Assembly (NCBI GenBank): GCA_030390025.1
Contig: CM059427.1
Span: 20,150,001-20,214,000 of the forward strand
Length of the DNA: 64,000 bases
Source of the DNA: Squalus acanthias
Lineage: Eukaryota
Direction of reading: 5' to 3'
A program made the translations under genes and the position numbers. Shown here one piece after another: positions 1-56,984 of the stretch (position 1 is its first letter; each line of letters opens with the position of its first letter). The notes below the pieces were generated by a model. The model worked only from the letters and a program-made list of their open reading frames with translations. It was not told the DNA's origin and ran no database searches.

Positions 1-138
1 AATACAAAATGATCTCTGACATTTCTTTAGCCAGTCTTTGCGTTCTAAAGTCTGATAGCACAGATGTTGGTGAATACAAGTGTTCAGTCAAAAATGATGT
101 GGGGAGTTGTTCCTGCAGTTCTACAGTCAGTTTGAAAG
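1..138 (+). CDS. TTN: Titin Ig exon 1 (type A; 5'-truncated by window)
   Basis: KYKMISD...DVGEYKCSVKNDVGSCSCSSTVSLK, donor AAAG|gtcag. Confidence 0.93.
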
Positions 139-315
139 GTCAGTTACAATCCAGTTCTAGTAAGTGGTTTCACCTGGATGTTGTGTGGTATCTGTTTCGA
201 TATCATGTTCTTATTAGGTATTATTGAAGTGTTGAAGCATAATATTTTTAATAATTGAACATTGGTTGTATAATTGTAAATTATAACAGGGTATATTCTC
301 TTTACTTTAAACTAG

Positions 316-594
316 AACGACCAACCTTCGTACAAACAATAGAAAATGCAACAGTATTTTCTGGAAATTCTGCTGTATTTCAATGTCTTGTAAGAGGCTC
401 AGTTCCTATAGCTACAAGCTGGAAAAAAGATGGCAAACATGTCAAAGAAGACGATAATGTAAAAATCTCCTTTGAAAACAATATTGCCACATTACAGATT
501 ATTAAGGCTGAAGAAAATCACAGTGGAAATTACATATGTCAGGCAAAGAATGATGCGGGAACTGCAAAATGCTTTGCTACATTGGCCATAATGG
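316..594 (+). CDS. TTN: Titin Ig exon 2 (type B, 279 nt)
   Basis: ctag|AACGA...ATGG|gttag; ERPTFVQ...W...GNYICQAKNDAG. Confidence 0.93.
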
Positions 595-1203
595 GTTAGT
601 AGGAAGTAATAAGCACAAGTATTGTCCACAAATTATTGATCTATGTCTCATAATATTTACTTTTCCACAGTAATATTATTTTAATGTTTTTAAATTAATT
701 CTGTGATCATCAAGGTGAGGAATGTAATAGTTCGCAGTGGGAACATTTTCCATGTCGAGCTGCCATTGTCAGGAACAAACAGTCAGTGTGCCACAGTTAA
801 ATGCAGGATATAGCTCCCTGTACTCTATCCCCAAAATATGCCTCTGGCAAATCCTCAGAAGAGCATTTCCTCTGTATCTGTGTGACATTTTTTCAATTTC
901 CCCCAACATCTATTTTGTGAGGTCCCTGAATTAGATTGTTAACTTAATGCCCAGTTAGGGACGGTTTAGTGCCATTGGGAGCTGGATTGAGACTGCCCAA
1001 ACTCATTTCACACGGAACACTTACAACAAGCATGCAGAAGAGACTTTGATTGCAGCAGTCTTGACTGGATTTGAACTCAAGTCCATGAGGTATCAAACCC
1101 ATTGTGCAGTCTGTTTCCCCCCAAATCTATTATCTTAAAATAGCAATCCGAGCATAAATATTGCATCGTTTTCCTGATGTAAATGATCTAATTTTTCCCA
1201 CAG

Positions 1204-1482
1204 AACCTGCGAATATCATAGAAAAAACTGAGCCACTCACAGTGACTTCAGGAAACCCAGCCATTTTGGAATGTACTGTAGCTGGTACACCAGAATTAAA
1301 AGTTGCATGGTTCAAAAGTGGAAAGCAACTGGAATCAAGTAGAAAATATAAGATGAGTTTTGTGAATAAAGTGGCCAGTCTAAAAATTCTGGCTGTTGGA
1401 ATGGATGACAGTGGTGACTATACTTTTAAGGTCCAGAATGAGTTTGGAGCCAACAGCTGCAATGTTTCTTTGACAGTGTTAG
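1204..1482 (+). CDS. TTN: Titin Ig exon 3 (type C, 279 nt)
   Basis: acag|AACCT...TTAG|gtcag; EPANIIEK...DSGDYTFKVQN. Confidence 0.93.
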
Positions 1483-1617
1483 GTCAGTGATTAATTTGTG
1501 TTGATGGCATCGATTTCATAAAGCATTTCTTTTAAAACCAAAGCTTATCACAAAGTTTAAAATAATTGACACTTTTTTATTGATGTTTTGTGATTTTTTT
1601 CCCTTTATATTGGACAG

Positions 1618-1905
1618 AACAAATAATTGCTCCATTGTTTACAAGAAAACTAAAGGAAATGGGCAGTATTTTAGGATCTGTTGTACGAATGGAATGCAAA
1701 GTTTCTGGTTCTATTCCAATGACCGTTACTTGGTATAAAGCAGACAGTGAAATATCAGCTAGTAACAAATACAAGATGTCATTTCAAGACAACATGCTGT
1801 CTTTAGAGGTCAATGAGTTAGACTTTTCAGATGGTGGAATTTACACTTGCAAAGCAGCAAATTCAGCAGGAAAGGATGAATGCAGTGCTGTCTTAAGTGT
1901 AAAAG
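1618..1905 (+). CDS. TTN: Titin Ig exon 4 (type D, 288 nt)
   Basis: acag|AACAA...AAAG|gtttg; IIAPLFTRKL...DGGIYTCKAANSAG. Confidence 0.93.
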
Positions 1906-2174
1906 GTTTGAGACATTGCTTTGCTACATTTCTTTCTCATCAGTACTATAAGCAAATACTTATTTTCTTCATTTATATTTTTTGTTTGCTACAATAGTGA
2001 AGTAACTAAATAAACCTTTCAACCATCTCTATCTTCTTTTTGTTAAGAGTTCTTAGATTTTTGAAGGATATGTTAGCATGTGTTAATCATAAAGTTGTCT
2101 TTAATCTGATCATGTCTTCCAGTTTGTACATACATCTGAGTTAATTAAATGCTTTTTTCTTGTGTGAATTTTAG

Positions 2175-2453
2175 AGCCCCCAAGCTTTACAGACAAAGTA
2201 ATGTCCCAGGATGTTGTACTTGGTTCTACAGTGCAGTTTAAGAGTGTTGTGAAAGGAAGCACACCACTCTCTACAAAATGGTTCAAAGGGGACAGGGAAT
2301 TGATGCGTGGTGTGGCATATTCTATTTGGAATGAAGGCTCAACATATTTTCTAGAGCTGTTTTCAGCTAAAACATCTGATGCGGGTGCTTACACCTGCCA
2401 AGTCAGCAACGATGTTGGCACAGATGCCTGTTCTGCAGAATTGTTCGTTAAAG
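2175..2453 (+). CDS. TTN: Titin Ig exon 5 (type E, 279 nt)
   Basis: ttag|AGCCC...AAAG|gtgtg; EPPSF...DAGAYTCQVSNDVG. Confidence 0.93.
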
Positions 2454-3095
2454 GTGTGCATTTCTGGATTTTTGCTGCAGTTCTCTTTTATATAAAACTG
2501 TTTTCCCTGCTTTGCTATCTTAAAAGTTTAGAAACATTAACTTGTTTTCTTGATGGTTGGTCAGCTCTAGTGGTAGAACGTTACACTGCCAACCATGGAG
2601 AGGGGCCAATGGTGGTCATCAGGCATTCAAATCTGGGCTGACAGTCAGACGCAATGTTGTTTATTCGGAAACTCTACAGTTTTGCTATGAACTGCTAGGT
2701 GGAGCATCAGGTAATGGTGGGGAATTCTCTCTCAGTTCGAGGAAAACTGGCAAACCCAAGAGTCCTCACTGAAATTGATTTGCATCATCTAATCATAAAA
2801 TGGCAGTGATGGCAACTTTGAGGACGTTCACAGTCTGGAATGCCCTACCGCCAATATTGAGGGAAGAACCATTTTGGTGGAGGCGGCAACCTGATGAAAA
2901 CCATATGAAAAAAGAAATGCTGTTTGCTTTACCATACACAGAGCTCAGTTTGAGTATTAAACTATGTTTTTTTTAAATTTGTAAATTTGGTCTGTAAATG
3001 TTTCGTAGCCAATTATTTATATCTAAATATTAGTTTGAATTGCTTTTGATGATCGTTTAAATTTATATTGAAATTTATAATATTTTGGCTTCTAG

Positions 3096-3377
3096 AACCT
3101 CCTAGCTTCATTAAAAAGCTACATTCTTCAACAATACTAAAGAAAGGAGATTCAGCACGTTTTGAGTGCACTGTAACTGGCACACCTGAAATTAAAGTTA
3201 CTTGGTACAAAAACGGTCATGAAATTATAGCCAGTGGCAGATGTATGATGTCATTTGATGGTTCTGTGGCAATTCTTGAGATGATTGATGTTATTCTGGA
3301 TGACAGTACATGCTACATCTGTGAGGCACGAAATGAAGCTGGCAGTGACAGCTGCAGCACTGAAGTTGGAGTTAAAG
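3096..3377 (+). CDS. TTN: Titin Ig exon 6 (type F, 282 nt)
   Basis: ctag|AACCT...AAAG|gtctg; EPPSFIKKL...FECTVTGTPEIKVTWYK. Confidence 0.93.
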
Positions 3378-3497
3378 GTCTGTAGTAATGTCTTCTTTAG
3401 TCAGTAACAATATATATATGTTAGTTTCTTGAACAGGGATACTATTAGTTCCTGTATTGTGGTTGATTTGGATTTCTTTATTCTGATTACTTTATAG

Positions 3498-3776
3498 AAC
3501 CTCCCAGTTTTAGAAGGAAACTTCAATCTGCTGAAATAGTTACAACCAGTGATTTCACTCTTGAATGTGAGGTGGCTGGTACAGGGCCCTTTGAAGTTAT
3601 GTGGTATAAGGACAATAAACAAATTCGACGCAGCAAAAAATACAAAATGATCTCTGACATTTCTTTAGCCAGTCTTTGCGTTCTAAAGTCTGATAGCACA
3701 GATGTTGGCGAATACAAGTGTTCAGTAAAAAATGAAGTGGGGAGTTGTTCCTGCAGTTCTACAGTCGGTTTGAAAG
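3498..3776 (+). CDS. TTN: Titin Ig exon 7 (type A, 279 nt; mosaic sequence)
   Basis: atag|AACCT...AAAG|gtcag; EPPSFRRKLQ...DVGEYKCSVKN. Confidence 0.93.
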
Positions 3777-3976
3777 GTCAGTTGTAGTATGTTGTCAGAT
3801 ATATTTTCCTTCCGGTGTTTATAGTGCCATTTGAGTTATCTTGTTATCCATTAGAAAATTCAATGCTAAGCTATTTGTGGAAGCATTCTACATTTTACAT
3901 TAAAGCATTTTTAGAACCATAATGAAAAACAGCAAAATATATCCACATATTCATATTACCATTTGTTTTAAACTAG

Positions 3977-4255
3977 AACCCCCAGGATTTATAAAGAAGA
4001 TTGAAAATATAACAACATTGTCAGGGAATTCTATTGTATTCCAATGTCAAGTAAGAGGCTCAAAGCCTATTTATGTAACTTGGATGAAAGATAAAGATGA
4101 TATCCAAGAAGATGGTAATATTACACTGTCTTTTGAGAATAATATTGCTACTCTTCAAATAAATGATGTTGGAGAAAATCATGCTGGGAAATATACGTGC
4201 CAGGTCAAGAATGATGCTGGAACTGAGAAGTGTTTTGGCACATTGTTGGTCGCAG
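3977..4255 (+). CDS. TTN: Titin Ig exon 8 (type B, 279 nt)
   Basis: ctag|AACCC...GCAG|gtcag; EPPGFIKKIEN...HAGKYTCQVKN. Confidence 0.93.
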
Positions 4256-4399
4256 GTCAGTAGGATATTGATTAGTTTAATAGTACCCTCCCCTCCAAAG
4301 TTTATGCTAATTACGAGTGAATTCAGATTCCTTGTCATACATCAACTAAAATGAGACTTATACCAGTAATATATTGAAGAGATTTTTTTTTCCTCGTAG

Positions 4400-4678
4400 A
4401 ACCAGCAAAAATCACAGAACAAGCACAGTCACTCATTGTGACCGCAGGAAATCCCGCAAACCTGGAATGTACTGTAACTGGTACACCAGAACTGAAAGTT
4501 AAATGTTTTAAGGATGGTAATGAAATGGTACCTAGCAGAAAACACAAAATCAACTTTGAGAATAATGTGTTCAGCCTAAAGATTCCTTCTGTTTCTAATG
4601 ATGATACTGCTGAATATACTTTTGAGGTCAAGAATCAGTTTGGAACCAGCAGCTGTAAAGCTTCATTGACAGTATTAG
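4400..4678 (+). CDS. TTN: Titin Ig exon 9 (type C, 279 nt)
   Basis: gtag|AACCA...TTAG|gttag; EPAKITEQ...EYTFEVKNQFG. Confidence 0.92.
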
Positions 4679-5026
4679 GTTAGTGTTTTATTTGCATTTA
4701 GAATTTGACGAATTTAAATATCTAGTGTCATTTGAAAAAAAAATTTGCCCATAAAGAAATCCTGATCACATTGACCAAAACCATATATAAAGGCTTTTAT
4801 TGTTATAATGTTCTTTATGGAGACCAGTAACGATGGGAGTAGACAGATCAGCTGTGTTGGGAGTTTTAAAATAAGTTCTGTTTTGGATGGTCTCAGTAGG
4901 TATATCCTAATAAATATGAAAAATCTTATTGTAAACAATCACAGTGGATTTGATTCATTTAAAGCACTTCCACATTTTTGCTGTTTGAGTTGATTGGCTG
5001 TGCTTTTGTCACTTTATCTTGGACAG

Positions 5027-5314
5027 ATCAACTAATTCCCCCATTGTTTACAAGAAAATTACGAAAAATGGACAGTGTTTTAGGATCTTTCATACATATG
5101 GAATGCAAAGTTTCTGGTTCTCTTCCAATGAGCTTTTCATGGTATAAAGATTACAAAATAATAACAACTAGTGAAAAATACAAAGTGTTATGTCAAGATA
5201 ACACACCAACTTTGGAAGTTAATCAACTAGAGATTTCAGATCATGGAACTTATATTTGCAAAGCAACCAATTCAGTGGGAAGTGATGAATGCAGTGGTAT
5301 CTTAAATATAACAG
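5027..5314 (+). CDS. TTN: Titin Ig exon 10 (type D, 288 nt)
   Basis: acag|ATCAA...ACAG|gtttg; DQLIPPLFTRKL. Confidence 0.93.
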
Positions 5315-5569
5315 GTTTGAAAGATGAACTTGCTTTGTTTCAGTTCCTAATATAGCTTTTGCATATATAAGCACTTGTTCAATTTCTGATTTTTGCTTGT
5401 TGCCCTAAAAAGATAAATATATTTAGTGTTTAAAATTTATTATGCAGTTTATAGTAAGTTCTCATTTTAGCTCTGCTCTGCCATTTTATTTTTGTTGACA
5501 TCTTACCCAATGTGTAAACTAAGTACTATAGGGATCCAATTCTATTATTTTTTTTCACCTGAATTTTAG

Positions 5570-5848
5570 AGCCACCAAGTTTTATAGAAAAACCTGTAGC
5601 CCAGGAAAGTCTACCTGGTTCCGCAGTGCAGTTTAGAAGTGTTGTGAAAGGAACTGCTCCACTATCTATAAAATGGCTGAAGGATGGCAGGGAACTGATG
5701 TCTGGAGCTGATTGTTTCATTTTAAATGAAGGTTCAACAAGTTTACTCGAGTTGTTTTCAGCTAAAGTTTCTGATTTGGGTGACTATACTTGTGAAGTCA
5801 GCAACAAGGTTGGAAGCGCCACTTGTACAACAAGACTATTTATCAAAG
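5570..5848 (+). CDS. TTN: Titin Ig exon 11 (type E, 279 nt)
   Basis: ttag|AGCCA...AAAG|gtgtg; EPPSFIEKP...DLGDYTCEVSN. Confidence 0.93.
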
Positions 5849-6125
5849 GTGTGGAATTTAGGTTCACTTGTTAAACCATTGTGAAACACTGTTAAAAATT
5901 CAGACTTTTTCATTTTGAAAAGTTTACATGTCTGTAAAGTTATTTTTCTTTGGTTTGTTATACACTTTTCTCTCGTTTGTTATTTTTAATGTTGCTATCG
6001 TGCTGTGTGTTATCTTCCTTTATTCCTTTATATGTTGCATGTGTTTCATTGTTCCTTTTTATGTTGTATGGGTTTGTTTCAGACTTTTACATTTATAATT
6101 AAGTTTACTACATTTTTTTCTCTAG

Positions 6126-6407
6126 AACCTCCTTATTTTATTAAGAAGTTAGATCTTACAGCAATATTTAAAAAAGGAGAGACAGCAAGTTTTGAGTGCA
6201 AAGTAACTGGCACACCTGAAATCAAAATCACTTGGTTCAGCAACTATCGTGAAATTAGAGCCAGTGAAAAATACAGAATGTCATTTGTTGATTCAGTGGC
6301 AATATTTGAGATTGCTGACATAAACCTGGATGACAGTGGGAATTATTCCTGTAAAGCACAAAATGAAGCTGGCAGTGAATCTTGTGACATTAAAGTAACA
6401 GTTAAAG
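6126..6407 (+). CDS. TTN: Titin Ig exon 12 (type F, 282 nt)
   Basis: ctag|AACCT...AAAG|gtgtg; EPPYFIKKL...DSGNYSCKAQNEAG. Confidence 0.93.
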
Positions 6408-6651
6408 GTGTGTAAAAATTCCTAGTTACATTTTCCAACACAATTTGATTGTTTTTTTCTGAAAATGTTGCAAGTGCCTTGTGTTTATCAATGGAATATT
6501 TGGGAGCCTTCACTTTAACAGCCTGTTTTTATAACTTCTTTTTTATTGGCCAATAAAAATTATCATTCAATTGCCACTAGCTCCTTAGTTCAAACTGATG
6601 AATGAAATGTAATGTAAACATTTTACTAGAACATTTTAAATTCGACTCCAA

Positions 6652-7134
6652 AGGACCGATTTTAATTACCGGTGGGAAGCTGGCAGATGCAGACCGTGCG
6701 GCAACAAGGTAAGTCCGGGAGTGGGACTTTCCAAGGGTCTCACTGCTGCTTAGGGGAGAAGCCCAGGGCATTGAGGCCCAGACATTCTATGTCGGGCCAG
6801 GAGGAGCTCTCATGCTCCTCCTGGTCCCATTGTAGAAAGATGTTTAATTTGTCTCGAAGACCTCGCTATCTTCCCGACAACTTTACCTGGCATGCAGCCG
6901 TGGCAGGCATCCTGCTCAGAAGAACATTAACGTGCCTTTTTTATCCCATGTGCATCATTGGACCCCAATTTTCATTTATCGGTGAGGTTCCTGCTGTTAT
7001 CCAATGGACATCTCAATCATCGCAAAAACCAGTTGTGTTAAAATGGGGAATAAGCGGGAACAGAGTGAGAATTGGAGATGCTCCATTTTAACTGCTCCCT
7101 CTCTTTGCTGCTGGTTGGGAGATTTAAAGTTCCC
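6652..7134. mobile_element. Degenerate non-autonomous DNA element (MITE-like)
   Basis: GC-richer block in an AT-rich intron, with imperfect inverted ends (GGACCGATTTTAA ... TTAAAGTTCCCC) resembling other MITE termini in the window. Confidence 0.45.
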
Positions 7135-7461
7135 CATTTAATTCTTTTTAAATGCTAAGAGTCATGTGCAACTAGCCAAAATTATTAATGTTCAGGGCTG
7201 ATAATACCATTGAAAATTGTAGATATGTATATAAAAAAATGAAGGGTATTTATTGGAGTATTTTACTAATCTGCATTAAATAATAGCTGTAGGAGAAAAC
7301 ATCTGTGTGTTGGTTTGTCTCCCATGATTAGTTATCACACCTTAAAATAAGAATCACGCAAATATTTTTTCACGTCAATGGTTATTGTTGGGAGTCACTG
7401 TGCAAAACCTGAATTTAGTGGCCTGTGATTTGTAAACCATGTTAATGTGTTTACTCTTTAG

Positions 7462-7740
7462 AACCTCCCACATTTACGAAGAAGCTTGAACCAGTTGAGG
7501 TAGTAAAAACCAGTGATTTCACTCTTGAATGTGAGGTGGCCGGTTCAGGTCCCTTTGAAGTTATGTGGTATAAGGACAATAAACAAATTCGACACAGTAA
7601 AAAATACAAAATGATCTCTGACATTTCTTTATCAAGTCTTTGCGTTCTAAAGTCTGATAGCACAGATGTTGGTGAATACAAGTGTTCAGTCAAAAATGAT
7701 GTGGGGAGTTGTTCCTGCAGTTCTACAGTCAGTTTGAAAG
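7462..7740 (+). CDS. TTN: Titin Ig exon 13 (type A, 279 nt)
   Basis: ttag|AACCT...AAAG|gtcag; paralogue of exon 1. Confidence 0.93.
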
Positions 7741-7918
7741 GTCAGTTACAATCCAGTTCTAGTAAGTGGTTTCACCTGGATGTTGTGTGGTATCTGTTTC
7801 GTTATCATGTTCTTATTAGGTATTATTGAATAACTTGAAGCATAATATTTTTAATAATTGAACATTGGTTGTATAATTGTAAATTATAACAGGGTATATT
7901 CTCTTTACTTTAAACTAG

Positions 7919-8197
7919 AACGACCAACCTTCGTACAAACAATAGAAAATGCAACAGTATTTTCTGGAAATTCTGCTGTATTTCAATGTCTTGTAAGAGG
8001 CTCAGTTCCTATAGCTACAAGCTGGAAAAAAGATGGCAAACATGTCAAAGAAGATGATAATGTAAAAATGTCCTTTGAAAACAATATTGCCACATTACAG
8101 ATTATTAAGGCTGAAGAAAATCACAGTGGAAATTACATATGTCAGGCAAAGAATGATGCGGGAACTGCAAAATGCTTTGCTACATTGGCCATAATGG
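7919..8197 (+). CDS. TTN: Titin Ig exon 14 (type B, 279 nt)
   Basis: Near-identical to exon 2; GT-AG bounded. Confidence 0.93.
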
Positions 8198-8806
8198 GTT
8201 AGTAGGAAGTAATAAGCACAAGTATTGTCCACAAATTATTGATCTATGTCTCATAATATTTACTTTTCCACAGTAAAATTATTTTAATGTTTTTAAATTA
8301 ATTCTGTGATCATCAAGGTGAGGAATGTAATAGCTCGCAGTGGGAACATTTTCCATGTCGAGCTTCCATTGTCAGGAACAAACAGTCAGTGTGCCACAGT
8401 TAAATGCAGGATATAGCTCCCTGTACTCTATCCCCAAAATATGCCTCTGGCAAATCCTCAGAAGAGCATTTCCTCTGTATCTGTGTGACATTTTTTCAAT
8501 TTCCCCCAACATCTATTTTGTGAGGTCCCTGAATTAGATTGTTAACTTAATGCCCAGTTAGGGACAGTTTAGTGCCATTGGGAGCTGGATTGAGACTGCC
8601 CAAACTCATTTCACACGGAACACTTACAACAAGCATGCAGAAGAGACTTTTATTGCAGCAGTCTTGACTGGATTTGAACTCAAGTCCATGAGGTATCAAA
8701 CCCATTGTGCAGTCAGTTTCCCCCCAAATCTATTATCTTAAAATAGCAATCCGAGCATAAATATTGCATCGTTTTCCTGATGTAAATGATCTAATTTTTC
8801 CCACAG

Positions 8807-9085
8807 AACCTGCGAATATCATAGAAAAAACTGAGCCACTCACAGTCACTTCAGGAAACCCAGCCATTTTGGAATGTACTGTAGCTGGTACACCAGAATT
8901 AAAAGTTGCATGGTTCAAAAGTGGAAACCAACTGGAATCAAGTAGAAAATATAAGATGAGTTTTGTGAATAAAGTGGCCAGTCTAAAAATTCTGGCTGTT
9001 GGAATGGATGACAGTGGTGACTATACTTTTAAGGTCCAGAATGAGTTTGGAGCCAACAGCTGCAATGTTTCTTTGACAGTGTTAG
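8807..9085 (+). CDS. TTN: Titin Ig exon 15 (type C, 279 nt)
   Basis: Near-identical to exon 3. Confidence 0.93.
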
Positions 9086-9222
9086 GTCAGTGATTAATTT
9101 GTGTTGATGGCATCGATTTCATAAAGCATTTCTTTTAAAACCAAAGCTTATCACAAAGTTTAAAATAATTGACACTTTTTTTTATTGATGTTTTGTGATT
9201 TTTTTCCCTTTATATTGGACAG

Positions 9223-9510
9223 AACAAATAATTGCTCCATTGTTTACAAGAAAACTAAAGGAAATGGGCAGTATTTTAGGATCTGTTGTACGAATGGAAT
9301 GCAAAGTTTCTGGTTCTATTCCAATGACCGTTACTTGGTATAAAGCAGACAGTGAAATATCAGCTAGTAACAAATACAAGATGTCATTTCAAGACAACAT
9401 GCTGTCTTTAGAGGTCAATGAGTTAGACTTTTCAGATGGTGGAATTTACACTTGCAAAGCAGCAAATTCAGCAGGAAAGGATGAATGCAGTGCTGTCTTA
9501 AGTGTAAAAG
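9223..9510 (+). CDS. TTN: Titin Ig exon 16 (type D, 288 nt)
   Basis: Near-identical to exon 4. Confidence 0.93.
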
Positions 9511-9779
9511 GTTTGAGACATTGCTTTGCTACATTTCTTTCTCATCAGTACTATAAGCAAATACTTATTTTCTTCATTTATATTTTTTGTTTGCTACAAT
9601 AGTGAAGTAACTAAATAAACCTTTCAACCATCTCTATCTTCTTTTTGTTAAGAGTTCTTAGATTTTTGAAGGATATGTTAGCATGTGTTAATCATAAAGT
9701 TGTCTTTAATCTGATCATGTCTTCTAGTTTGTACATACATCTGAGTTAATTAAATGCTTTTTTCTTGTGTGAATTTTAG

Positions 9780-10058
9780 AGCCCCCAAGCTTTACAGACA
9801 AAGTAATGTCCCAGGATGTTGTACTTGGTTCTACAGTGCAGTTTAAGAGTGTTGTGAAAGGAAGCACACCACTCTCTACAAAATGGTTCAAAGGGGACAG
9901 GGAATTGATGCGTGGTGTGGCATATTCTATTTGGAATGAAGGCTCAACATATTTTCTAGAGCTGTTTTCAGCTAAAACATCTGATGCGGGTGCTTACACC
10001 TGCCAAGTCAGCAACGATGTTGGCACAGATGCCTGTTCTGCAGAATTGTTCGTGAAAG
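9780..10058 (+). CDS. TTN: Titin Ig exon 17 (type E, 279 nt)
   Basis: Near-identical to exon 5. Confidence 0.93.
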
Positions 10059-10264
10059 GTGTGCATTTCTGGATTTTTGCTGCAGTTCTCTTTTATATAA
10101 AACTGTTTTCCCTGCTTTGCTATCTTAAAAGTTTAGAAACATTAACTTGTTTTCTTGATGGTTGGTCAACTCTAGTGGTAGAACGTTACACTGCCAACCA
10201 TGGAGAGGGGCCAATGGTGGTCATCAGGCATTCATTCAAATTTGGGCTGACAGTCATACTCAAT

Positions 10265-11086
10265 CGCTGGAATTTTAATTTGAGGCGGGGAGAGAGCAGA
10301 GGGGCTGGAAAGCGGTCTGGAAACCCGAATTTAATGACAGGGCCTGATTAGCGTTTAGAATCCCTGTTTTGCATCTGCAGCCAGCCAGATGGAGAGGCTG
10401 GCTGGCTGGCTGTCACACGGGTAGACCTGCGGCACCAGGCCGCAGAGAGGAGAGCTGGGATGTGGGGGAGTCGGGGGGAATCAGTAGCCAGAGTGTGATC
10501 GGGGACCTGAGGGGGAAGGTTTGAAGGCTGAAGGATTATCAGGGGCCGGAGGCGGGAAGTTGGCAGGTGATTGGAGGCCGGAGGAGGAATTGGAGGCTTG
10601 GGGGTGGGTGGGGGTGCGGTTGGAGGCTGGAGGCGGTCCAAGGTCCATCCAAGGATCGAAAGCCAGAGATTGGATTGAAGTTCGGAGGCCTCAGAGGGGA
10701 GATTGCGGTGAGATCGGAAGGGCCGGGGTGTGTCCGATCGCGGGGCGTTGGCGAAGCAGGAACGCTGGATCCAGTGAGTAAGTGGAAAGGCACTTAACTC
10801 CTGCATCCAGCAGTCCTCGCCCTCCTTTAGCTGGCTGGTTCCCCGAGGCCCGGGAATCCTGCCCGCCCACTGTTAAATTTAAAATGGAGCTACAAAATGA
10901 GGCACGCAGCCTCATTGTAATTTTTAAGTGCAAACCCATCTCCTGCGAGCGGGTTGGCCGCTCGCCCCCGTCTCGCCTCCATTAAAACCGGAAGTGGGCG
11001 GGTTAGGGTTGGGATTCAGATTTTTAACTCTTCAACCTCCCACCTGACCCCAACCCACCCATTTTTGGGGGTTAAAATTACCCTCC
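10265..11086. mobile_element. PIF/Harbinger-like MITE, family 1 (G-rich interior)
   Basis: Absent from the paralogous site at ~2655. Imperfect TIRs (GGAATTTTAA / TTAAAATTACCC). Shares internal motifs (CAGCCAGATxGAGAGGCTGGCTGGCTG, CGCCTCCATTAAAACCG) with 37084-37969. Confidence 0.8.
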
Positions 11087-11528
11087 AAGTTCTTTATTAG
11101 GAAGCTCTACAGTTTTGCCATTAACTGCTAGGTGGAGCAGCATGTCATGGTGGGGAATTCTCTCTCAGTTCAAGGAAGAACTGGCAAACCCAAGAGTCCT
11201 CACTGAAATTGATTTGTATCATCTAATCATTAAAATGACAGTGATGGCAATTTTGAGCAATTTCACAGCCTGGAATGCCCCACCCCCAATATTGAAGGAA
11301 GAACCATTTTGGTGGCGGCAGCAATGAGAGAACTTGATAGCACATGAAAAAGGAAATGCTGTTTGCTTTACCATACACAGAGGTCTAATTGAGTATTGAA
11401 CTTTGATTTTCTTAAAGATGTAAATTTGGTCTGTAAATGTTATGTAGCCAATTATTTATGTCTAATTAGTAATTTGAATTGATTTTGATTATGCTTTAAA
11501 TTAAATGTAGTAATATTTTGGCTTCTAG

Positions 11529-11810
11529 AACCTCCTAGCTTCATTAAAAAGCTACATTCTTCAACAATACTAAAGAAAGGAGATTCAGCACGTTTTGAGT
11601 GCATTGTAACTGGCACACCTGAAATTAAAGTTACTTGGTACAAAAACGGTCATAAAATTATAGCCAGTGGCAGATGTATGATGTCATTTGATGGTTCTGT
11701 GGCAATTCTTGAGATGATTGATGTTATTCTGGATGACAGTACATGCTACATCTGTGAGGCACGAAATGAAGCTGGCAGTGACAGCTGCAGCACTGAAGTT
11801 GGAGTTAAAG
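11529..11810 (+). CDS. TTN: Titin Ig exon 18 (type F, 282 nt)
   Basis: Near-identical to exon 6; GT-AG bounded. Confidence 0.93.
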
Positions 11811-11930
11811 GTCTGTAGTAATGTCTTCTTTAGTCAGTAACAATATATATATGTTAGTTTCTTGAACAGGGATACTATTAGTTTCTGTATTGTGGTTGAT
11901 TTGGATTTCTTTATTCTGATTACTTTATAG

Positions 11931-12209
11931 AACCTCCCAGTTTTAGGAGGAAACTTCAATCTGCGGAAGTAGTCAGAAGCAGTGGTGTCACTCTTGAATG
12001 TGAGGTGGCCGGTACAGGGCCCTTTGACGTTATGTGGTATAAGGACAATAAACAAATTCCGTCTAGTGAAAAATACAAGATGATCTCTAAGAACTTTTTA
12101 ATTAGTCTTCATATTTTGAAGTTGGATATTTCAGTTGTGGGTGACTATAAATGCACAGTAACAAATGATGTGGGAAGCTGCTCCTGCACTTGTGGTGTCA
12201 GTTTAAAAG
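11931..12209 (+). CDS. TTN: Titin Ig exon 19 (type A, 279 nt)
   Basis: atag|AACCT...AAAG|gttag; EPPSFRRKLQ...GDYKCTVTNDVG. Confidence 0.93.
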
Positions 12210-12449
12210 GTTAGTTGCATTGTGATAGGCAAGTACTTTTACTTGTAATGTTGACATAAACAATATGTATTGCTATTTTATTATAATCAGGAAAGAGGAC
12301 AAAGCACAGTTTTAGCAGCTAACATGTAATGTTGACATTTTTAGGGAATAGGCCCCAAAAACAGTATTTATTGCTATTTTATTATAATCATGAAAGCGGA
12401 CAGAGCAAATCACTCATATTTATTTCCGTGCCTGTTTATCTTGAACTAG

Positions 12450-12728
12450 AACCCCCATCATTTATAAGGAAGATTGAAAATGTTACAACCATTGTTGGAA
12501 ATTCTGCTGCGTTTCCATGCCTTGTAAAAGGCTCACAACCTTTATCTATAAGTTGGATGAAAGGTAACGATGATATCAAAGAAGATGATAATATAGCAAT
12601 TTCTTTTGAGAACAATATTGCTATCCTGCAAATTACAGCCGTTGAAGCAAAACATGGTGGGAAATACATTTGTCAAGCCAAAAATGATGCAGGGATTGAG
12701 AAATGTTTTGCTACGTTGATAGTAACAG
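12450..12728 (+). CDS. TTN: Titin Ig exon 20 (type B, 279 nt)
   Basis: ctag|AACCC...ACAG|gttgg. Confidence 0.93.
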
Positions 12729-12885
12729 GTTGGTAGGAAACATTTAGAAATATGATTGGCTAAAATGTAAAAGTCAGTTACTGCTAAGTTCAAATTTATT
12801 TATCATACTAATGTGCAAAAGAAGACCACATTAAAATATTAAACATATTGACAACATTACTCAGCACAGTATTTTTTCTTAACAG

Positions 12886-13164
12886 AATCTGCAAAAATTG
12901 TTGAGAGAGCAATGTCACACAGTGTAACTGTAGGAAATCCAGCAATTTTGGAATGTACTGTAGCTGGTACACCAGACCTAAAAGTTAAGTGGTTTAAAGA
13001 TGGAAAGGAGCTCACATCCACCAGAAAGTGCAAATTGAGCTTTGAGAAAAACATGGCCAGTTTAAAGATTCTGTCGGTAGAGATGTCGAGTAGTGGTGAA
13101 TATACGTTTGAGGTTCAGAATGAATTTGGAGTCGACAGCTGCAAAGCTTCCTTGACAGTATTAG
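12886..13164 (+). CDS. TTN: Titin Ig exon 21 (type C, 279 nt)
   Basis: acag|AATCT...TTAG|gttag. Confidence 0.93.
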
Positions 13165-13291
13165 GTTAGTATTTTAACTGTATTGAGAGATTTGGATGTG
13201 AAAAGGAATGAGGTTAAGGAATGAAAACAAAGTTGGTATTTTAGGCTACTTTTACATCTTAAGCTTACAGGTTGTGCTCTGTGTTGTACAG

Positions 13292-17825: not shown

Positions 17826-18712
17826 AGAGTCTGCAAAGGGATATAGATAGGTTAAGTGAGTGGGCAAAAATTTGGCAGATGGAGTATAATGTGGGAAAAT
17901 GTGAGGTTATCCACTTTGGTAGGAAGAATAAAAAGCAAATTATTATTTAAATGGAGAGAGACTACAAAATGCGGCGGTACAGAGGGATCTGGGGGTCCTC
18001 GTACATGAAACACAAAAAGTTAGCGTGCAGGTGCAGCAAGTAATTAGGAAGGCAAATGGAATGTTGGCCTTTATTGCAAGGGAGGTGGAGTATAAAAGCA
18101 GGGAAGTCCTGTTACAACTGTACAAGGCGCTGGTGAGACCACACCTAGAGTACTGCGTGCAGTTTTGGTCTCCTTATTTAAGGAGGGATATACTTGCATT
18201 GGAGGCAGTTCAGAGAAGGTTCACTAGGTTGATTCCTGAGATGAAGGGGTTGTCTTATGAAGAAAGGTTGAGCAGGTTGGGCCTATACTCATTGGAGTTT
18301 AGAAGAATGAGAGGTGATCTTATTGAATCATGTAAGATTCTGAGGGCTTGACGGGGTAGATGCAGAGAGGATGTTTCCCCTCGTGGGGGAATCTAGAACT
18401 AGGGGGCATAGTTTCAGAATAAGGGGTCACCCATTTAAAACGGAGAGGAGGAGGAATTTCTTCTCTCAGAGGGTCGTGAATCTTTGGAATTCTCTACCCC
18501 AGAGAGCTGTGGAGGCGGAGTCATTGAATATATTCAAGGCAGAGATAGACAGATATTTGAGCTACAGGGGAGTCAAGGGTTATGGGGAGCGGGCGGGAAA
18601 GTGGATTTGAGGCCAAGATCAGATCAGCCATGATCTTATTGAATGGTGGGGCAGACTCGAGGGGCCAAATGGCCTACTCCTGCTCCTATTTCTTATGTTC
18701 TTATGTTCTTAT
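17826..18712 (+). mobile_element. CR1-clade LINE (HER1-like), 5'-truncated; RT C-terminus and 3' tail
   Basis: LQRDIDRLSEWAKIWQMEYNVGKC and LVRPHLEYCVQFWSP motifs with frameshifts; ends in (TTCTTATG)n tail. Confidence 0.92.
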
Positions 18713-18760
18713 ATTCTTTAATTGTTGATCTATATTGATTATACCTTGATTATACCTTAG

Positions 18761-19039
18761 AACCACCAACATTTGTCCAACATTTAGAGCCTCTGGAAAT
18801 AACAGTAGGAGACTCAGGATCTTTTGAATGCACACTTACTGGAACACCTGAAATCAATGTGGCTTGGTACAAAGGAGACACGAAACTGAGAGCCACCCCT
18901 AATTGCAAAATGGAGTTTGTGAACAATGTTGCAAAAATGGAACTGAAGAAAGCAACTTTGAGTGACTGTGGGGAATTTATATGCAAAGCTGAAAATAAAA
19001 TAGGGGCCTGTTCATCAAAGGCCATGCTCACTGTACAAG
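18761..19039 (+). CDS. TTN: Titin Ig exon 31 (279 nt)
   Basis: ttag|AACCA...CAAG|gtgat; EPPTFVQHLEP. Confidence 0.92.
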
Positions 19040-19178
19040 GTGATATTGCTTGACAGATTGGCATAAGTCTGCATGCCATACATTTCTCTGTTTTAATCTT
19101 TTCATTGTGGTTCAAAAAAATCATTTCCTGAATAATCACAGTTTTGATGAACTCATTCTGTAACTGTTTATTTTACAG

Positions 19179-19466
19179 AACTTAAAACTGCGCCTTCTTT
19201 CACAAGAAAAATTCAGAATATGGAAGGCACTCTTCATCTTCCAGTGACATTTGAGTGTCGTATTTCTGGTTCAGCTCCTATTGAAACTTCTTGGTTTAAA
19301 GATGGAGTAAAATTGGCCAGTGCAGAAAACTTAATTATATCTTTCATAGAGAACACAGCATCTCTTACAATTCTTAACACTGAAATGGATCATGCTGGTG
19401 AATACACTTGCAAAGCTTCCAACATGGTTGGAGATGCTTCATGTAGTTCCAAACTAACTCTGAAAG
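19179..19466 (+). CDS. TTN: Titin Ig exon 32 (288 nt)
   Basis: acag|AACTT...AAAG|gtttg; APSFTRK...PVTFECRISGS. Confidence 0.93.
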
Positions 19467-19645
19467 GTTTGTTGGTTAAAATATTTACTAAATATCTTCA
19501 GCTTTTTGTCTTTATTATCCTTTACCTTAATTTTGTAGTATTTACACTTTAATATCTGCTTCTTTTACCTGTCATTCCTAGATGTTATTGCTTTACTATT
19601 GATAGTATTATGACAGAAAATAATTATTTCTTGTTATATTTTTAG

Positions 19646-19933
19646 AACCTAGAGTTGCCCCTGTATTTGACAAAAAACTAGAACCAGTAGAAGTTACCAC
19701 TGGGCAAAGTGTAGAGCTTGAATGCCATTTAATTGGCTCTCGCCCAATTAAAGTTATTTGGCTGAAGGGTGACAAAGAGATTCGATCAGGTGGCAATTAC
19801 AAGATAACCTGTGCGGAAAATACACCTCATCTGACAATTCTAAAAGCAGACAAGGGAGACTCTTGCCAGTACATTTGTGAGGCCAGCAATGATATTGGAA
19901 ATGACTCATGCAAAACGCAAGTGACTGTAAAAG
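19646..19933 (+). CDS. TTN: Titin Ig exon 33 (288 nt; end of ten-domain module)
   Basis: ttag|AACCT...AAAG|gtatt; EIRSGGNYKITCAENTPHL. Confidence 0.92.
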
Positions 19934-20074
19934 GTATTGCTCAATATCAGTTATTATTCTTTTCCCCCTGGTACAGTATTCCAGGCTAAACTTTATTCAT
20001 TTGGAACAAGAATGTTGCTACTTGTTAGTTTTACTTCTTCATTATGATTATTTTCCAGTTACTTGTTCAGTTTT

Positions 20075-21940
20075 ACATAGAAACATAGAAGATAGGAGCA
20101 GGAGTAGGCCATTCAGCCCCTCGAGCCTGCTCCGCCATTCAATGAGATCATGGCTGATCATCCAAATTCAGTACCCCATCCCTGCCTTCTCCCCATATCC
20201 CTTGATCCCTTTAGCTTTAAGAAATATATCTAACTCCTTCTTGAATATATTTAATGAGTTGGCCTCTACTGCCTTCTGTGGCAGAGAATTCCACAGGTTC
20301 ACCACTCTCTGGGTGAAGAAATTCCTCCTCATCTCAGTCCCAAATGGCTTACCCCTTATCCTTAGACTGTGACCCCTGGTTCTGGACTCCCCGGCCATTG
20401 GGAACATCCTTCCTGCATCTAGTCTGTCTAGTCCTGTTAGAATTTTATAAGTTTCAATGAGATCCCCTCTCATTCTTCTAAACTCCAGCGAGTATAAGCC
20501 CAATCGACCCAATCTCTCCTCATACGTCATTCCTGCCATCCCAGGTATCAGCCTGGTAAATCTTCGCTGCACTCCCTCCATGGCAAGAACATTCTTCCTC
20601 AGATAAGGCGACCAAAACTGCACACAATACTCAAGATGTGGTCTCACCAAGGCCCTGTACAACTGCAGCAAGACATCCTTGTTCCTGTACTCGAACCCTT
20701 TCGCTACGAAGGCCAACATACCATTTGCCTTCTTAACCGCCTGCTGCACCTGCATGCTTACCTTCAGCGACTGGTGCACAAGGACACCCAGGTCTCGTTG
20801 CACTTCCCCTTCTCCCAATCTATTGCCATTCAGATAATAATCTGCCTTCCTGTTTTTGACACCAAAGTGGATAACCTCGCATTTATCCACATTATATTGC
20901 ATCTGCCATGCTTCTGCCCAATCACCCAACCTGTCCAAATCATACTGGAGTTTCTCGGCATCCTCCTCACGGCACACACTCACACCCAGCTTTGTGTCGT
21001 CTGCAAACTTGGAGATATTACATCTAGTTCCCTCGTCTAGATCATTAATATATATTGTGAATAGCTGGGGTCCTAGGACCAATCCCTGCGGTACCCCACT
21101 AGTCACTGCCTGCCACTCGGAAAAAGACCCATTTATTCCAACTCATTGCTTTCTGTCTGCCAACCAGTTCTCTATCCAAGTCAATACCTTGCCACCAATC
21201 CCATGTGCCTTAACATTACACGCTAATCTCTTATGCGGGACCTTATCGAAAGCCTTCTGAAAGTCCAAATACACCACATCCACTGGTTCTCCCTTATCTA
21301 TTTTACCAGTTACATCCTCAAAAAATTCCAGTAGATTAGTCAAGCACGATTTACCTTTTGTAAATCCATGTTGACTTTGTCCGATCCTGTCACTGTTTTC
21401 CAAGTGCTCTGCTATTACATCTTTTATAATGGACTCTAGCATTTTCCCCACTACCGATGTCAGGCTTACCGGTCTAGTAATTCCCCGTTTTCTCTCTACC
21501 ACCTTTTTTGAATAGTGGGGTAACATTAGCTACCCTCCAAACCATGGGTACTGTTCCAGAGTCTATAGAATTTTGGAAGATGACCAGCAATGCATCTACT
21601 ATTTCTAGGGCCACTTCCTTAAGTACCCTAGGATGTAGATTATCAGGCCCTGGGGATTTATCGGCCTTCAATCCCGTCAATTTCCCTAACACTATTTCCC
21701 TACAAATACTGATTTCTTTCAGTTCCTCCCTCTCATTAGACCCTATGTTCCCCGACATCTCTGGGAGGTTATTTGTGTCCTCCTTTGTGAAGACAGAACC
21801 AAAGTATGTATTTAATTGATCTGCCATTTCTTTGTTCCCCATTATAAATTCCCCTGATTCTGACTGCAAGGGACCTACGCTTGACTTCACCAATCTTTTT
21901 CTCTTCACATATCTATAAAAGCTTTTACAGTCAGTTTTTT
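20075..21940 (-). mobile_element. CR1-clade LINE (HER1-like), 5'-truncated; RT domain
   Basis: Minus-strand ORFs with YLDFQKAFDKVPH, GVPQG, KFADDTK; tail reads (ACATAGAA)n on + strand. Confidence 0.95.
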
Positions 21941-24089: not shown

Positions 24090-24410
24090 GTATGGGGTAG
24101 ATGTGAAATAGATTGTCATTGTTATGTGAATAATATAAGGATGCTAAAAGCTTTTACTAATTATGTTTTATTAAGCTTGTCCAACTTCTTTAGTCTTACT
24201 GCATTAAGGGAAAAATCAGTGCTGGATCGAGATCTTTTACTTGAAGTATTGAAAGACCGAGGAGGTCCCCGCAGCCATATAGGTGACACTGGATGGTTGG
24301 AGCAACCACTAGCCAATGGCTAGGTTTACCATTAGCAGTGCCCAAGCCAGGTTCTGTCATTGGTCAAATATGCCTCAAGCTGCCAATAGTAATTTTTTGT
24401 GAGTCAAATT

Positions 24411-25291
24411 GAGGGAAAAATTCAGTTGGTTGCGCCTCCCGTTAGCACCTTAAGAGGGCGCTAATGGGGCGCAAAGCAACTAGCGCCCGGGCGCGGCGAT
24501 GTTTGGCGAAATTAACTAGACATTTTGTGGTGGCGCTAAACACTACCGCCACGATCTCCTGCGCCGGCAGATCGTGACGTCAGTCGAGTGCGCAACGCCC
24601 CGGTAGCGCCCTGGAGCGGATATTGAGTGGCGCCCCCTGCCTTACCGCCTGCCGCTAGCAACGACAGGTTGAGGGGAGCGTTTTGCAGTCAGGAAGGGAC
24701 TGGGGGAGCGCTATTTAAAGGCGACCGCTTCCTGCCTTTTTTTGTTGGTGACATTTTTGAACCACGCATTCTGAGAGAGAGAGAGAGAGACTTCTGGAGA
24801 GATTCAACACTGTGTGAAGGAGTTTTGGGTACTGAGCAGCACTTTGCAGGTTCATTTTGATTTGCCCTTGTATCGATTTAGAAGAGACTGTGGGGGCTGC
24901 ACTCTGAGCTCTTTCCCTGGGCCTCTCCATTTTTCTTTCCAGCAGATTTGATGTACAGGTCTCTCCAGGCCAAGATTCAAGGCTGCAATGAGCAGGATGT
25001 GGCTGGAAAGCAAGATTAACCATCCCCTTTAAGAACTGGCCGGCACCAGTGTGTCTGTGTTCCATTGCTGACTGACATCACATGAGCTTCACCAGCGCTC
25101 TGAGGTAGAGCCTCGCTCCTCGGCCTTTGCGCCTTAAGACAGGTGTGAAGCGCCTGATTTAGCGCTCCAATCACCTCCAGGGGCGATAAAAGTCAAGTTT
25201 GCAGTCGGAGGCGATAATTAGCGCCAGGCGCTAATCTTTGCGCCCGGCCGATAATTGCGCCCCAAATGGGGCGATACTGAATTTCTCCCCC
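24411..25291. mobile_element. PIF/Harbinger-like MITE, family 2, copy 1
   Basis: TIR GGGAAAAATTCAGT / ACTGAATTTCTCCCCC; highly similar to 32394-33283 and 43329-44258. Confidence 0.88.
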
Positions 25292-27149
25292 AAAAATTCT
25301 AAAGGTGTTCTCACAGATCATGCAACCGATCAAGACCCTCTTGCTGAGCTAGACGTGATGCTTTTTTTATTAAAGAAGAGAACGTTGCTTCTTACTTTTG
25401 AATTCTTAAACAAAGAATTAAACAAAATGTATAATTCTGGTTCTGATTTTAAATCACAGATTTGTTTCTTGCAGTTAGACAGCTTCTGTTGTTTAAAACT
25501 GAAATAACTGCATTTCATATCTCACAGACTGAATAGAAAAGAAATGTCAGATTTATATTTAATTCTAGCTCTGTTCATTACAGTGCTCTGTACCATCACC
25601 TCTGTGTTTCCAATGCTGCCAAAAGTTCTTCATTTTGAAATTTTATGCCAGGTGTCTTTGGCCACAATACTAAATACATTTATGTACTGTTTTTGTTTTG
25701 TAAATATGGTACAGTAGTTAAATTGTTTTTAAACTGATGATGTTGCAATATTGTTAATTGAGGTGTAATTTGGAGAGTGAAGATGCATCATGTGCATAAG
25801 GGCTTTTATAGTTTGTTCTTAGTACCAAAACTGCATCTTTGTCTGTAATTGTTTTTGTTCCATCTTGTTAAATGATCTGTACAGGGAAGTGGTGTTTATG
25901 CACACATTTCAAAATACAATTTATAATATAATCATAATAATTGGAGGGTAGGAGCATATTATCTTAGGTTTGTAAAACATGAAGGCAGCTCTGGCCAATA
26001 CTTTCTTCTTCCAATGAATGCAATGGTATTGCATGGGGAGCTTGCACTTGCACAAGCACAAGGGGCCAAATGGCCTACTGTACGGGAATTTCTATGATTC
26101 TAGGTGCATACGCAAAAGTCACCATACACTGAAAACAGGCACTTTCCATCCATTGCTCAGTGGTAGCAAATGTATGGGTGTGTTACAGTACAGTTTTCTT
26201 TATTGCCAAAGAAATAATAACAGCATCCTCTCTGAATTATTAATAATTGCTATGCATATTTGTCACTATGTCCTGGAAAGTTTTATTAAAAAAACGCTCA
26301 TAGGTGAGATATTACAAGTGAATCCACGTCAGTTCTAGAAAGACACAAAGAGGAATACTGGAATTGTAAATATATAATAAAAAGAAGATATTCAGCATAA
26401 ATTTGACATCAGTAGACTTGCTAGCATGCTTTGTAAATATTGTAGCATATTGGAGATTGCAATACAAGGTGTATTTCGGCTTTTTCACAGATTTATTATT
26501 TATAATCTACATTTTTTTGGCGTGGTTGGAACCAGGCTTCAGATATCTAAATTGATGCAGTAATATCCATTTTCAACCCTGTACAAAAGAAATTTTACTC
26601 TGCTTCCCAAGCAAACACATACACTGACATAAATATTTGGAGGAATCAGTTACTCTTGGAAAGGGAGAAGTCAGTGAGTGTGAATGTACTACCTCACCTC
26701 TTCCAAATGGTGCCTGCCAGAGGACCGACCAATCAAACAATTCAGGGACTTTACTAAGCACACCTCAAAATTCCCATTGGCAGGCAAGAGACCACAAATG
26801 CATTTCAGACATCTACAGGCTCCCAAGCCTCATATTACTTCTCAACAACCCAACCTTAAGAAACCATGTCCTGCGACACTGTCACCCCACAATACCCACA
26901 GCTGAATAAAGAGATGAAAGCTTCTTGTACATTGTCAATACATAGGTGCTATTGGAGCTTTTTCACGGATTTATTATTTATAATTCATCCATTTTGTATG
27001 GTTGGAGGCAGGCTTCAGATATCTAAATTGATGCATTAATATCCACTTTCAACTCCCCAGCACCAAATGTAGATTGCCTTTCATAGACCCTTAGAAGAGA
27101 CTAAAGGAACCTCCATAGTTGTTCTAATGTTATCAGCTGGTGAAAAGCA

Positions 27150-32329: not shown

Positions 32330-32393
32330 GTAAAAGAGCAGTTAGCTTTGGAATGTATTATCAAAGGGGTATTGGTTTAAGTGGAGAATCTAT

Positions 32394-33283
32394 GGGGGGA
32401 AAATTCAGTTGGTTGCACCTCCCGTTAGCGCCTTAAGAGGGCGCTAATGGGGCGCAAAGAACTAGCGCCCGGGCGCGGCGATGTTTGCGCCGCTCGCGAA
32501 ATTAACTAGACATTTTGTGGCGGTGCTAAACACTACCGCCACGATCTCCTGCGCCGGCAGATCGTGACGTCAGTCAAGTGCGCAACGCACCGGTAGCGCC
32601 CCGAAGCGGATATTGAGTGGCGCCCCCTGCCTTACCGCCTGCCGCTAGCAATGACAGGTTGAGGGGAGCGTTTTGTAGTCAGGAAGAGACTGGGGGAGCG
32701 CTATTTAAAGGTGACCGCTTCCTGCCTTTTTTTGTTGGTGACATTTTTGAACCACGCATTCTGAGAGAGAGAGAGAGACTTCTGGAGAGATTCAACGCTG
32801 TGTGAAGGAGTTTTGGGTACTGAGCAGCACTTTGCAGGTTCATTTTGATTTGCCCTTCCTTGTATCGATTTAGAAGAGACTGTGGGGGTTGCACTCTGAG
32901 CTCTTTCCCTGGTACTCTCTATTGTTCTTTCCAGCAGATTTGATGTACAGGTCTCTCCAGGCCGAGATTCAAGGCTGCAATGAGCAGGATGTGGATGGAA
33001 AGCAAGATCAACCCTCCCCTTTAAGAACTGGCCCGTGCCATTGTGTCTGTGTTCCATTGCTGACTGACATCACATGAGCTTCGCCAGCACTCTAAGTTAG
33101 AGCCTCGCTCCTCGGCCTTTGCGCCTTAAGACAGATGTGTAGCGCCTGATTTAGCGCTCCAATCACCTCCAGGGGCGATAAAAGTAAAGTTTGCAGTCGG
33201 AGGCGATAATTAGCGCCAGCCGCTAATCTTTGCGCCCGGCCGATAATTGCCCCCCAAATGGGGCGATACTGAATTTTTCCCCC
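32394..33283. mobile_element. PIF/Harbinger-like MITE, family 2, copy 2
   Basis: TIRs GGGGGGAAAATTCAGT / ACTGAATTTTTCCCCC; 3-bp TSD TAT. Confidence 0.9.
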
Positions 33284-43074: not shown

Positions 43075-43328
43075 GTACAAAAGAAGCCATGTGTTTCATA
43101 CTAGCATTGTTCTTTTGATAAATGTGTATTCATCTTGTAATTATCTTGGAAAGTAGTTCTGTTTTAGAGGCTTCAAATTGCCAATGCTCTGCTACTTGTT
43201 CATCTTATTTTACGATATGTGTTGTTTTAATTGTTTGCTTGTGAATTTGTGCCATTCTATTACTGCATTGTGTTGTTCTTGTACTTATTGATACTGTCAT
43301 TATGCTTAGTTAGGTATTAAAACACATA

Positions 43329-56900: not shown

Positions 56901-56984
56901 TGCCAGAGGTTCCTAAGACGCTGGTAAAACCAGAAGAAAAGCCATCCATTGTTCCAAGAAGAGATGAAGTTGCACCCACTAAAG
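56901..56984 (+). CDS. TTN: Titin PEVK exon P15 (84 nt)
   Basis: VPEVPKTLVKPEEKPSIVPRRDEVAPTK. Confidence 0.92.

Follow-up and report, generated by a model that had tools for sequence, protein, structure and literature searches.

Divergent intron sequence around a MITE insertion suggests that gene conversion conceals the age of tandem titin Ig units in Squalus acanthias

Introduction

How old is a tandem duplication within a titin gene if its copies are about 99% identical over most of their length and clearly less alike in a stretch of intron that holds a transposon in one copy? The question is raised by the first part of the window, by which we mean the whole 64,000-nucleotide stretch of Squalus acanthias DNA analysed here (GenBank assembly GCA_030390025.1, contig CM059427.1, positions 20,150,001 to 20,214,000, forward strand). 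The initial annotation of this DNA had read the divergent stretch as a place where a MITE blocks gene conversion between otherwise homogenised titin Ig modules. We examined the copies, the insert, and the same locus in sequencing runs of related organisms.

Results

Tandem titin Ig units

The exons encode titin I-band Ig domains according to PDB matches, with one Ig per exon, and are 74-91% identical to titin-like records of rays, sharks and chimaeras. The exon series has a six-domain period and lies between three N-terminal Ig domains and a 10-Ig repeat. With 60 kb of upstream DNA added to the window, the layout resolves into a repeat unit of ~7.7 kb and 12 exons, which form two 6-Ig super-repeats (Y1-Y6 and X1-X6). 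Where two copies had been described, the assembly has three tandem units, U0, U1 and U2, in a ~24-kb array at G000:C3:~20138000-20161930, which extends in the window up to 11930.

1 to 3496, plus strand: titin Ig exons from a partial X1 through X6, and their introns; this is the 3' portion of the middle unit U1, whose start lies upstream (G000:C3:~20145734)
2175 to 2453, plus strand: copy A's Ig exon X5, which differs once from that of copy B; best PDB match titin 3b43
3096 to 3377, plus strand: Ig exon X6, copy A; the homogenised ~450 bp on the island's right begin here
3497 to 11929, plus strand: last unit U2, 12 Ig exons, Y1-Y6 and X1-X6, from the exon series and unit alignment
3497 to 3778, plus strand: mosaic first exon of U2; 5' end like the Z1 exon (11930), 3' half like X1 and the upstream Y1
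9780 to 10058, plus strand: Ig exon X5, copy B, from the exon series
11529 to 11810, plus strand: Ig exon X6, copy B, from the alignment and exon series

The middle unit is chimeric: it is U2-like in Y1-Y4 and U0-like from the Y6 intron on, with an exact run of 4176 bp, a pattern that may reflect an unequal crossover or a false join between haplotypes. The informative paralogue comparison is U0/U1 with U2. In two samples of organism A, the closest of the organisms compared, contigs of the two island types described below (A-type and B-type) have depths of 11.2 and 14.1, and of 14.1 and 13, with shared blocks at 24-33. These depths fit two units, so the third would be either a private allele or an assembly error.

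The exon at 3497-3778 is likely a junction exon, judged from its two-sided resemblance. A mosaic make-up is seen in the exons that open the Y and X modules (3497-3778, 7461-7742, 11930-12211 and G000:C3:~20137999-20138280); their 3' halves differ from one another at 4-9 of 132 sites and from the Z1 exon at 37-40, while other Y/X pairs differ by ~20-25%. This suggests exchange at the 6-Ig register too. Several smaller features of the locus were recorded alongside. In X6 (3096-3377 and 11529-11810) the residues DSTCY replace the usual D-x-G-x-Y Ig motif in all copies, with similar residues at this site in shark, ray and chimaera records and the usual motif in adjoining exons. At 4735-4751 a cluster of seven substitutions turns a T-rich tract (U0, and contigs of runs X5, X20 and X11) into an A9 tract (U1 and U2); the cluster sits in a small inverted repeat and looks like template switching. 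A separate tandem duplication of 1039 bp, with 19 differences, occupies 56787-58864, each copy holding a single PEVK exon of 78 bp together with part of a repeat, and repeats with a ~630-bp period and 80-87% identity lie within a very large upstream titin exon (G000:C3:~20094970-20098320).

The island and its flanks

The window at 1-4700 was aligned globally with 7603-13200 and differences were counted per segment, copy A being 1-3530 and copy B 7603-11963 for the island counts.

2623 to 3077, no strand: MITE-free (A-type) island, identical in the upstream unit U0; U0 and U1 both carry it
2653 to 2655, plus strand: empty target site AAT in copy A, matching the insertion point in copy B
10229 to 10264, no strand: B-type island left of the MITE, from the global alignment and segment counts
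10265 to 11088, no strand: 824-bp insert, a non-autonomous Harbinger-like MITE of a dispersed family, with imperfect ~14-bp TIRs and a decayed 3-bp target duplication
11089 to 11510, no strand: B-type island right of the MITE, from the alignment and from contigs in organisms G, H, I and D

Left of the island, 17 of 2618 columns distinguish the copies, and right of it 3 of 430, which bears out the ~99% identity first noted up to ~2620 and again from ~3085. Divergence is not uniform after alignment: 48 of 451 island columns differ (10.6%) against 20 of 3048 in both flanks together (0.7%; Fisher p=1.5e-28). Identity in the island is therefore 89% of aligned columns by count, higher than the ~85% estimated by eye. 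The island substitutions, 20 transitions and 28 transversions, give a K2P distance of 11.5%; 3 of the 48 are CpG-type, and 8 indel events accompany them. The outermost A/B differences are at 2623/10229 and 3077/11510. The island is asymmetric, its divergence climbing with distance from the insert (7.2, 11.1 and 17.7%; heterogeneity p=0.056), so that it is highest farthest from the MITE, which counts against a role for the MITE.

The first 164 bp of the same X5-X6 intron are homogenised, with a single difference. On the other side the island ends 17 bp before the X6 acceptor and covers the likely branch-point region. From the start of the X6 exon onward there follows a homogenised block of ~450 bp, the outermost part of the homology, which fades from about 11947-11965, inside the exon after X6.

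The 824-bp MITE

The insert first given as ~820 bp long is present in copy B alone, as had been reported, and measures 824 bp. It had been placed exactly at the island; it lies at the island's left edge, with 32 bp of divergent sequence on its left and 422 bp on its right. A first look gave 7281 candidate copies of the family, the best of them 71-85% identical among 40 scored, and contigs of the family number in the thousands across the runs of related organisms. Among 13 copies with both ends (the island copy and 12 of 29 loci), the 3-bp flanks match exactly in 4 and in at least two of three positions in 10. A 3-bp target site duplication is described as usual for PIF/Harbinger elements (PMC9179366); the recognisable TIR is ~14 bp long, compared with 25-50 bp in PIF/Harbinger, whose autonomous partners carry a DDE transposase and a Myb-like ORF, and on this evidence the insert would be Harbinger-like only. 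Elsewhere in the window, an element of ~900 bp has three copies (24405-25302, 32393-33283 and 43323-44270) at 87-94% identity, and a distant relative of the island MITE lies at 37174-37963. Further intronic repeats, at 17831-21939 and 40131-41981, are putative LINE-like fragments, their family being taken from translation.

The island MITE differs from the consensus of 29 copies by 9.4-10.4% over a conserved 350 bp and from the nearest sampled copy by at least 11%. At 9-10% from the consensus it is old enough to precede the island, which has diverged by 5.7% per lineage (about 4-7%). The MITE is far older than the 0.7% divergence of the flanks, with an age about equal to, or somewhat above, that of the island. 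The gap between the two may come from a mixed consensus (29 of 7281 candidates) or from insertion before the duplication. Indeed, the MITE may have been inserted before the duplication and lost cleanly from copy A later, since Harbinger-type excision is reported to be usually precise (PMC2836001). Contigs across the MITE junctions occur in organisms G, H and I, and across the left junction alone in E; the run from organism E (X13), with coverage in 5 of 30 bins, matches copy B almost exactly and so provides no outgroup.

Both island types in related organisms

Eight of 20 sequencing runs were compared as Logan contigs, in part through the best-supported rows alone; organisms B, C and F, which have small shares, were left out. 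Organism H has an A-type contig spanning 2621-3109 (depth 16.3, 19 of 483 positions different) and a B-type contig spanning 11054-11542, including the MITE end (depth 14.4, 16 of 480), while its shared blocks are single contigs at depth 25-28. Organism I has an A-type contig at depth 12.1 (27 of 521 different), contigs for both MITE junctions at 15.4 and 15.3, and a depth of 23-25 in the shared blocks; both island types recur in another sample of this organism. In organism G the B-type contig has a depth of 37 and the shared blocks 58-70, the A type lying inside a longer contig. In organism D the shared contig stops at 2656, the insertion point, and two contigs follow, one with 82 of 566 differences (B-type, depth 5, MITE junction not covered) and one with 20 of 275 (depth 14.7). 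Thus the duplication is not absent from close relatives: both types occur in G, H, I and D at about single depth, and the proposal that it is older than 99% identity implies holds.

Shared blocks differ from the Squalus acanthias genome by 2.0-3.8% in G, H and I and by 5.7-6.3% in D; between the paralogues here the figure is 0.3-0.9%. Over Y2-Y6 the paralogues differ at 11 of 2465 positions and the orthologues at 71 of 2298 (G), 76 of 2749 (H), 78 of 2451 (I) and 132 of 2214 (D); in the X6 block the paralogues differ at 3 of 318 and the orthologue in D at 20 of 316 (p=2e-4). Paralogue divergence is below orthologue divergence at p<0.05 in 10 of 11 comparisons (nine at p<=0.012, one at p=0.047), the X6 block in G being the one without a significant difference (p=0.18). 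Since both island types are found in G, H, I and D and paralogues are closer than orthologues, the duplication predates the splits and the copies were homogenised afterwards. The claim that the copies are kept alike is upheld to that extent, conversion itself being the proposed cause. Logan contigs drop rare variants, and a single double-depth contig does not prove that the copies of a relative are identical; the argument for homogenisation after speciation is independent of whether they are.

The island behaves in the opposite way. In G, H and I the A-type and B-type contigs each lie 3.3-5.2% from their own type here, with 2-3% in adjoining blocks, against 10.6% between A and B. The predicted clustering of paralogues within species except at the island is seen in these distances: shared blocks are closer within this genome and island types group by copy. 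Among the sites listed, there are eight A/B differences at which the A type of relatives carries the B letter, which makes them recent changes of copy A here that were not passed on to B.

Island edges

Edge positions allow for ~30 bp of contig overlap, as inferred from 31-letter words. The left edge is at ~2621 in organisms A and I, ~2651 in H and 2656 in D, that is, 0-35 bp from the insertion site; the right edge is at ~3078-3084 in A, G, H and I and at ~3206, inside X6, in D. The proposed role of the MITE as a blocker agrees with the left side of the island, where the edge keeps close to the insertion in the organisms in which it can be read; it does not account for the 422 bp that the island runs to the right, or for other islands that have no copy-specific MITE.

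Other islands in the unit

Identity had been said to drop only around the MITE. Two more islands were found, with 29-bp and 156-bp indels:

3779 to 3975, no strand: second island, in the Y1-Y2 intron at the unit's left edge; 24 of 167 sites differ from U0 (G000:C3:20138281-20138448), K 16%, with a 29-bp indel
6435 to 7373, no strand: third island, in the Y6-X1 intron; 43 of 935 sites differ from U0/U1, K 4.8%, with a 156-bp deletion at 6699/6700

The largest indels of the unit (824, 156 and 29 bp) fall in these three divergent introns; three islands are too few to test indel size against divergence. Between U0 and U2 the Y1 exon, at the unit's left end, differs by 8.9%, and the remaining exons and introns by 0-2.3%. 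The 156-bp deletion falls in a repeat common to all copies of the Y6-X1 intron. A repeat in the X2-X3 intron, likewise common to all copies, is homogenised like its neighbours (1.0-1.7%), so that heterology, and not the presence of a repeat, marks the islands. In the Y6-X1 intron, organisms G and H have one double-depth contig with the 156-bp and 15-bp segments, whereas organism A has both forms; the Y6-X1 island has probably been overwritten in G and H, judging by these contigs.

Discussion

What might explain copies that are nearly identical almost throughout and keep two distinct versions of one intron across several organisms? We have considerable confidence that the tandem 12-exon copies are older than the split from the four organisms G, H, I and D, and that they have been homogenised by short-tract conversion from which the island escaped through the MITE together with the ~880 bp of homology to its right. 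Repeated short-tract gene conversion between tandem units would keep the copies alike. The 824-bp heterology would halt tracts coming from the long left block, which makes the MITE the initial barrier. Right of the MITE ~880 bp of homology would be left, in which the X6 exon and the next 170 bp would be similar enough to convert; purifying selection on X6 probably keeps the exon similar enough for conversion to continue, and this could explain why the right edge falls at the splice acceptor. The 422 bp between the MITE and X6 would then have escaped, and the divergence accumulated there would now prevent pairing. Conversion is described as going on until substitutions, TE insertions or other large indels disrupt pairing (PMC3924837). 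Arrest of conversion by insertions is an established mechanism, and the titin case would be a new instance of it. The MITE is likely a cause of the island, probably jointly with the nearby end of homology; two of the three islands are near unit ends, and the effect of the edge is confounded with that of the MITE.

Could the MITE instead be a passenger? Concerted evolution would then be real, introns near the unit ends would escape through short homology, and the MITE would persist because it landed, or was left, in an intron already sheltered. Islands at both unit ends (Y1-Y2 at 16%, X5-X6 at 11.5%), a divergence peak at the exon-proximal end, and a right edge set by the X6 acceptor in organisms A, G, H and I (inside X6 in D) agree with this. 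It fits poorly with the homogenised first 164 bp of the very same intron (1 of 164), a left edge at or near the insertion site (2656 in D, ~2651 in H, ~2621 in A and I), the homogenised outermost 450 bp, and an internal island that likewise holds a large indel. We regard a passenger role as unlikely.

Cycles of unequal crossing-over, from two to three to two copies, could also homogenise the units and leave end islands that were never crossed. The three assembled units, with a chimeric middle one and its 4176-bp exact run, would be expected from such exchange, but the third copy may be an assembly error, and neither the 450-bp X6 block beyond the island nor the internal 4.8% island between homogenised blocks, with patchy informative sites, is easily explained in this way. 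Because the X6 block is homogenised although it lies between the island and unique sequence, conversion is preferred over unequal crossing-over alone, which we hold to be improbable. The homogenising process is likely gene conversion, which the enclosed 450-bp block and the patchy informative sites would favour.

Selection holding two intron versions apart, for example for differential splicing of near-identical pairs of super-repeats, is more improbable still. [quoted passage not shown] A recent duplication with hypermutation beside the MITE, a patch from elsewhere or an assembly chimera is scarcely credible: the 0.7% difference over most of the unit, the 4176-bp exact repeat and the uncertain copy number might suggest one of these, but both island types occur in organisms 2-6% away and at ~1:1 depth in two samples of organism A, the B type evolves no faster than the A type between species (p=0.73, from 16 of 480 and 19 of 483 differences in H, and p=0.75), and only 3 of 48 changes are CpG-type. 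Searches of the genome itself gave no donor for the island outside the array (4 of 4 matches were local; these searches skip common words).

If conversion with local arrest is accepted, what does the island date? It had been thought to expose the true age of the duplication. It dates the local end of conversion, and the Y1-Y2 intron, short and noisy as its estimate of 16% is, has diverged at least as much. At 11.5%, the divergence of the island is ~1.6-2 times that from organism D and sets a lower bound on the age of the duplication, which may be much older. For orientation, a per-generation rate of 7e-10 is given for another shark (PMC10587355).

The number of 6-Ig repeats offers a wider frame. 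In the register of PMC12241362 it comes to six here if one unit is counted, to eight if there are two, and to ten in the assembly; the same source gives six for the elephant shark and eight for the whale shark. Two devil-ray records, on contigs of equal length, contain X3-X6 twice (81, 88, 86 and 68% identity), and their copies are about as far from each other as each is from the sharks. A protein tree of X3-X6 did not place the duplication relative to the split of rays and sharks; site patterns of 10:5:5 lean to grouping of the ray copies, which would fit copies that converted early and later escaped, or a duplication that arose independently. We put forward, tentatively and at somewhat less than even chance, that the 12-Ig duplication is the early-elasmobranch step from six super-repeats, as in the chimaera, to eight, as in sharks and rays, kept at ~99% here by conversion while the devil ray copies drifted (68-88% at the amino acid level), that the island is only a late local arrest, and that copy number may still change, as in a three-unit allele.

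The pattern is reminiscent of the cases of Fawcett and Innan 2011 (PMC3924837), in which paralogues are closer than orthologues and divergence is local to a TE or large indel. Unlike those described there, the copies here are tandem multi-exon blocks within one gene for a structural protein, the edges of the island vary by species, and one island is apparently erased in two. The primate red and green opsins, reviewed in the same article, are also old tandem duplicates with conversion and a sharp local divergence peak; that peak is exonic and selected, whereas the titin island is intronic, evolves at about the surrounding rate or faster, and lies against an insertion. Hanashima et al. 2025 (PMC12241362) describe the same region of connectin/titin in cartilaginous fishes, with three Ig, 6-Ig repeats and one 10-Ig repeat, and propose transposons as triggers of duplication; the terms 'conversion' and 'concerted' have no occurrence in its main text by term search. 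Unlike in that proposal, the transposon here is more likely a sign of the point at which homogenisation ends, and the unit of expansion is 12 Ig instead of 6. The triplication in the human TTN PEVK region (PMC12241362) likewise involves near-identical multi-exon tandem blocks of the I-band with a transposon at the locus; that event is described as 1-3 million years old, whereas here identity misleads and the block is Ig-coding. A literature search, with most subscription journals outside its scope, found no paper on gene conversion or concerted evolution in titin, and no useful primary study of insertions as barriers.

At this locus, data from several species show that a duplication within a gene can be far older than its 99% identity suggests, and a single place allows barriers to conversion of 824, 156 and 29 bp to be set side by side in different lineages. 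The finding is relevant to the lengthening of the titin spring in cartilaginous fishes, and dates and copy numbers taken from single assemblies for near-identical multi-exon repeats, in titin or similar ones, may be wrong.
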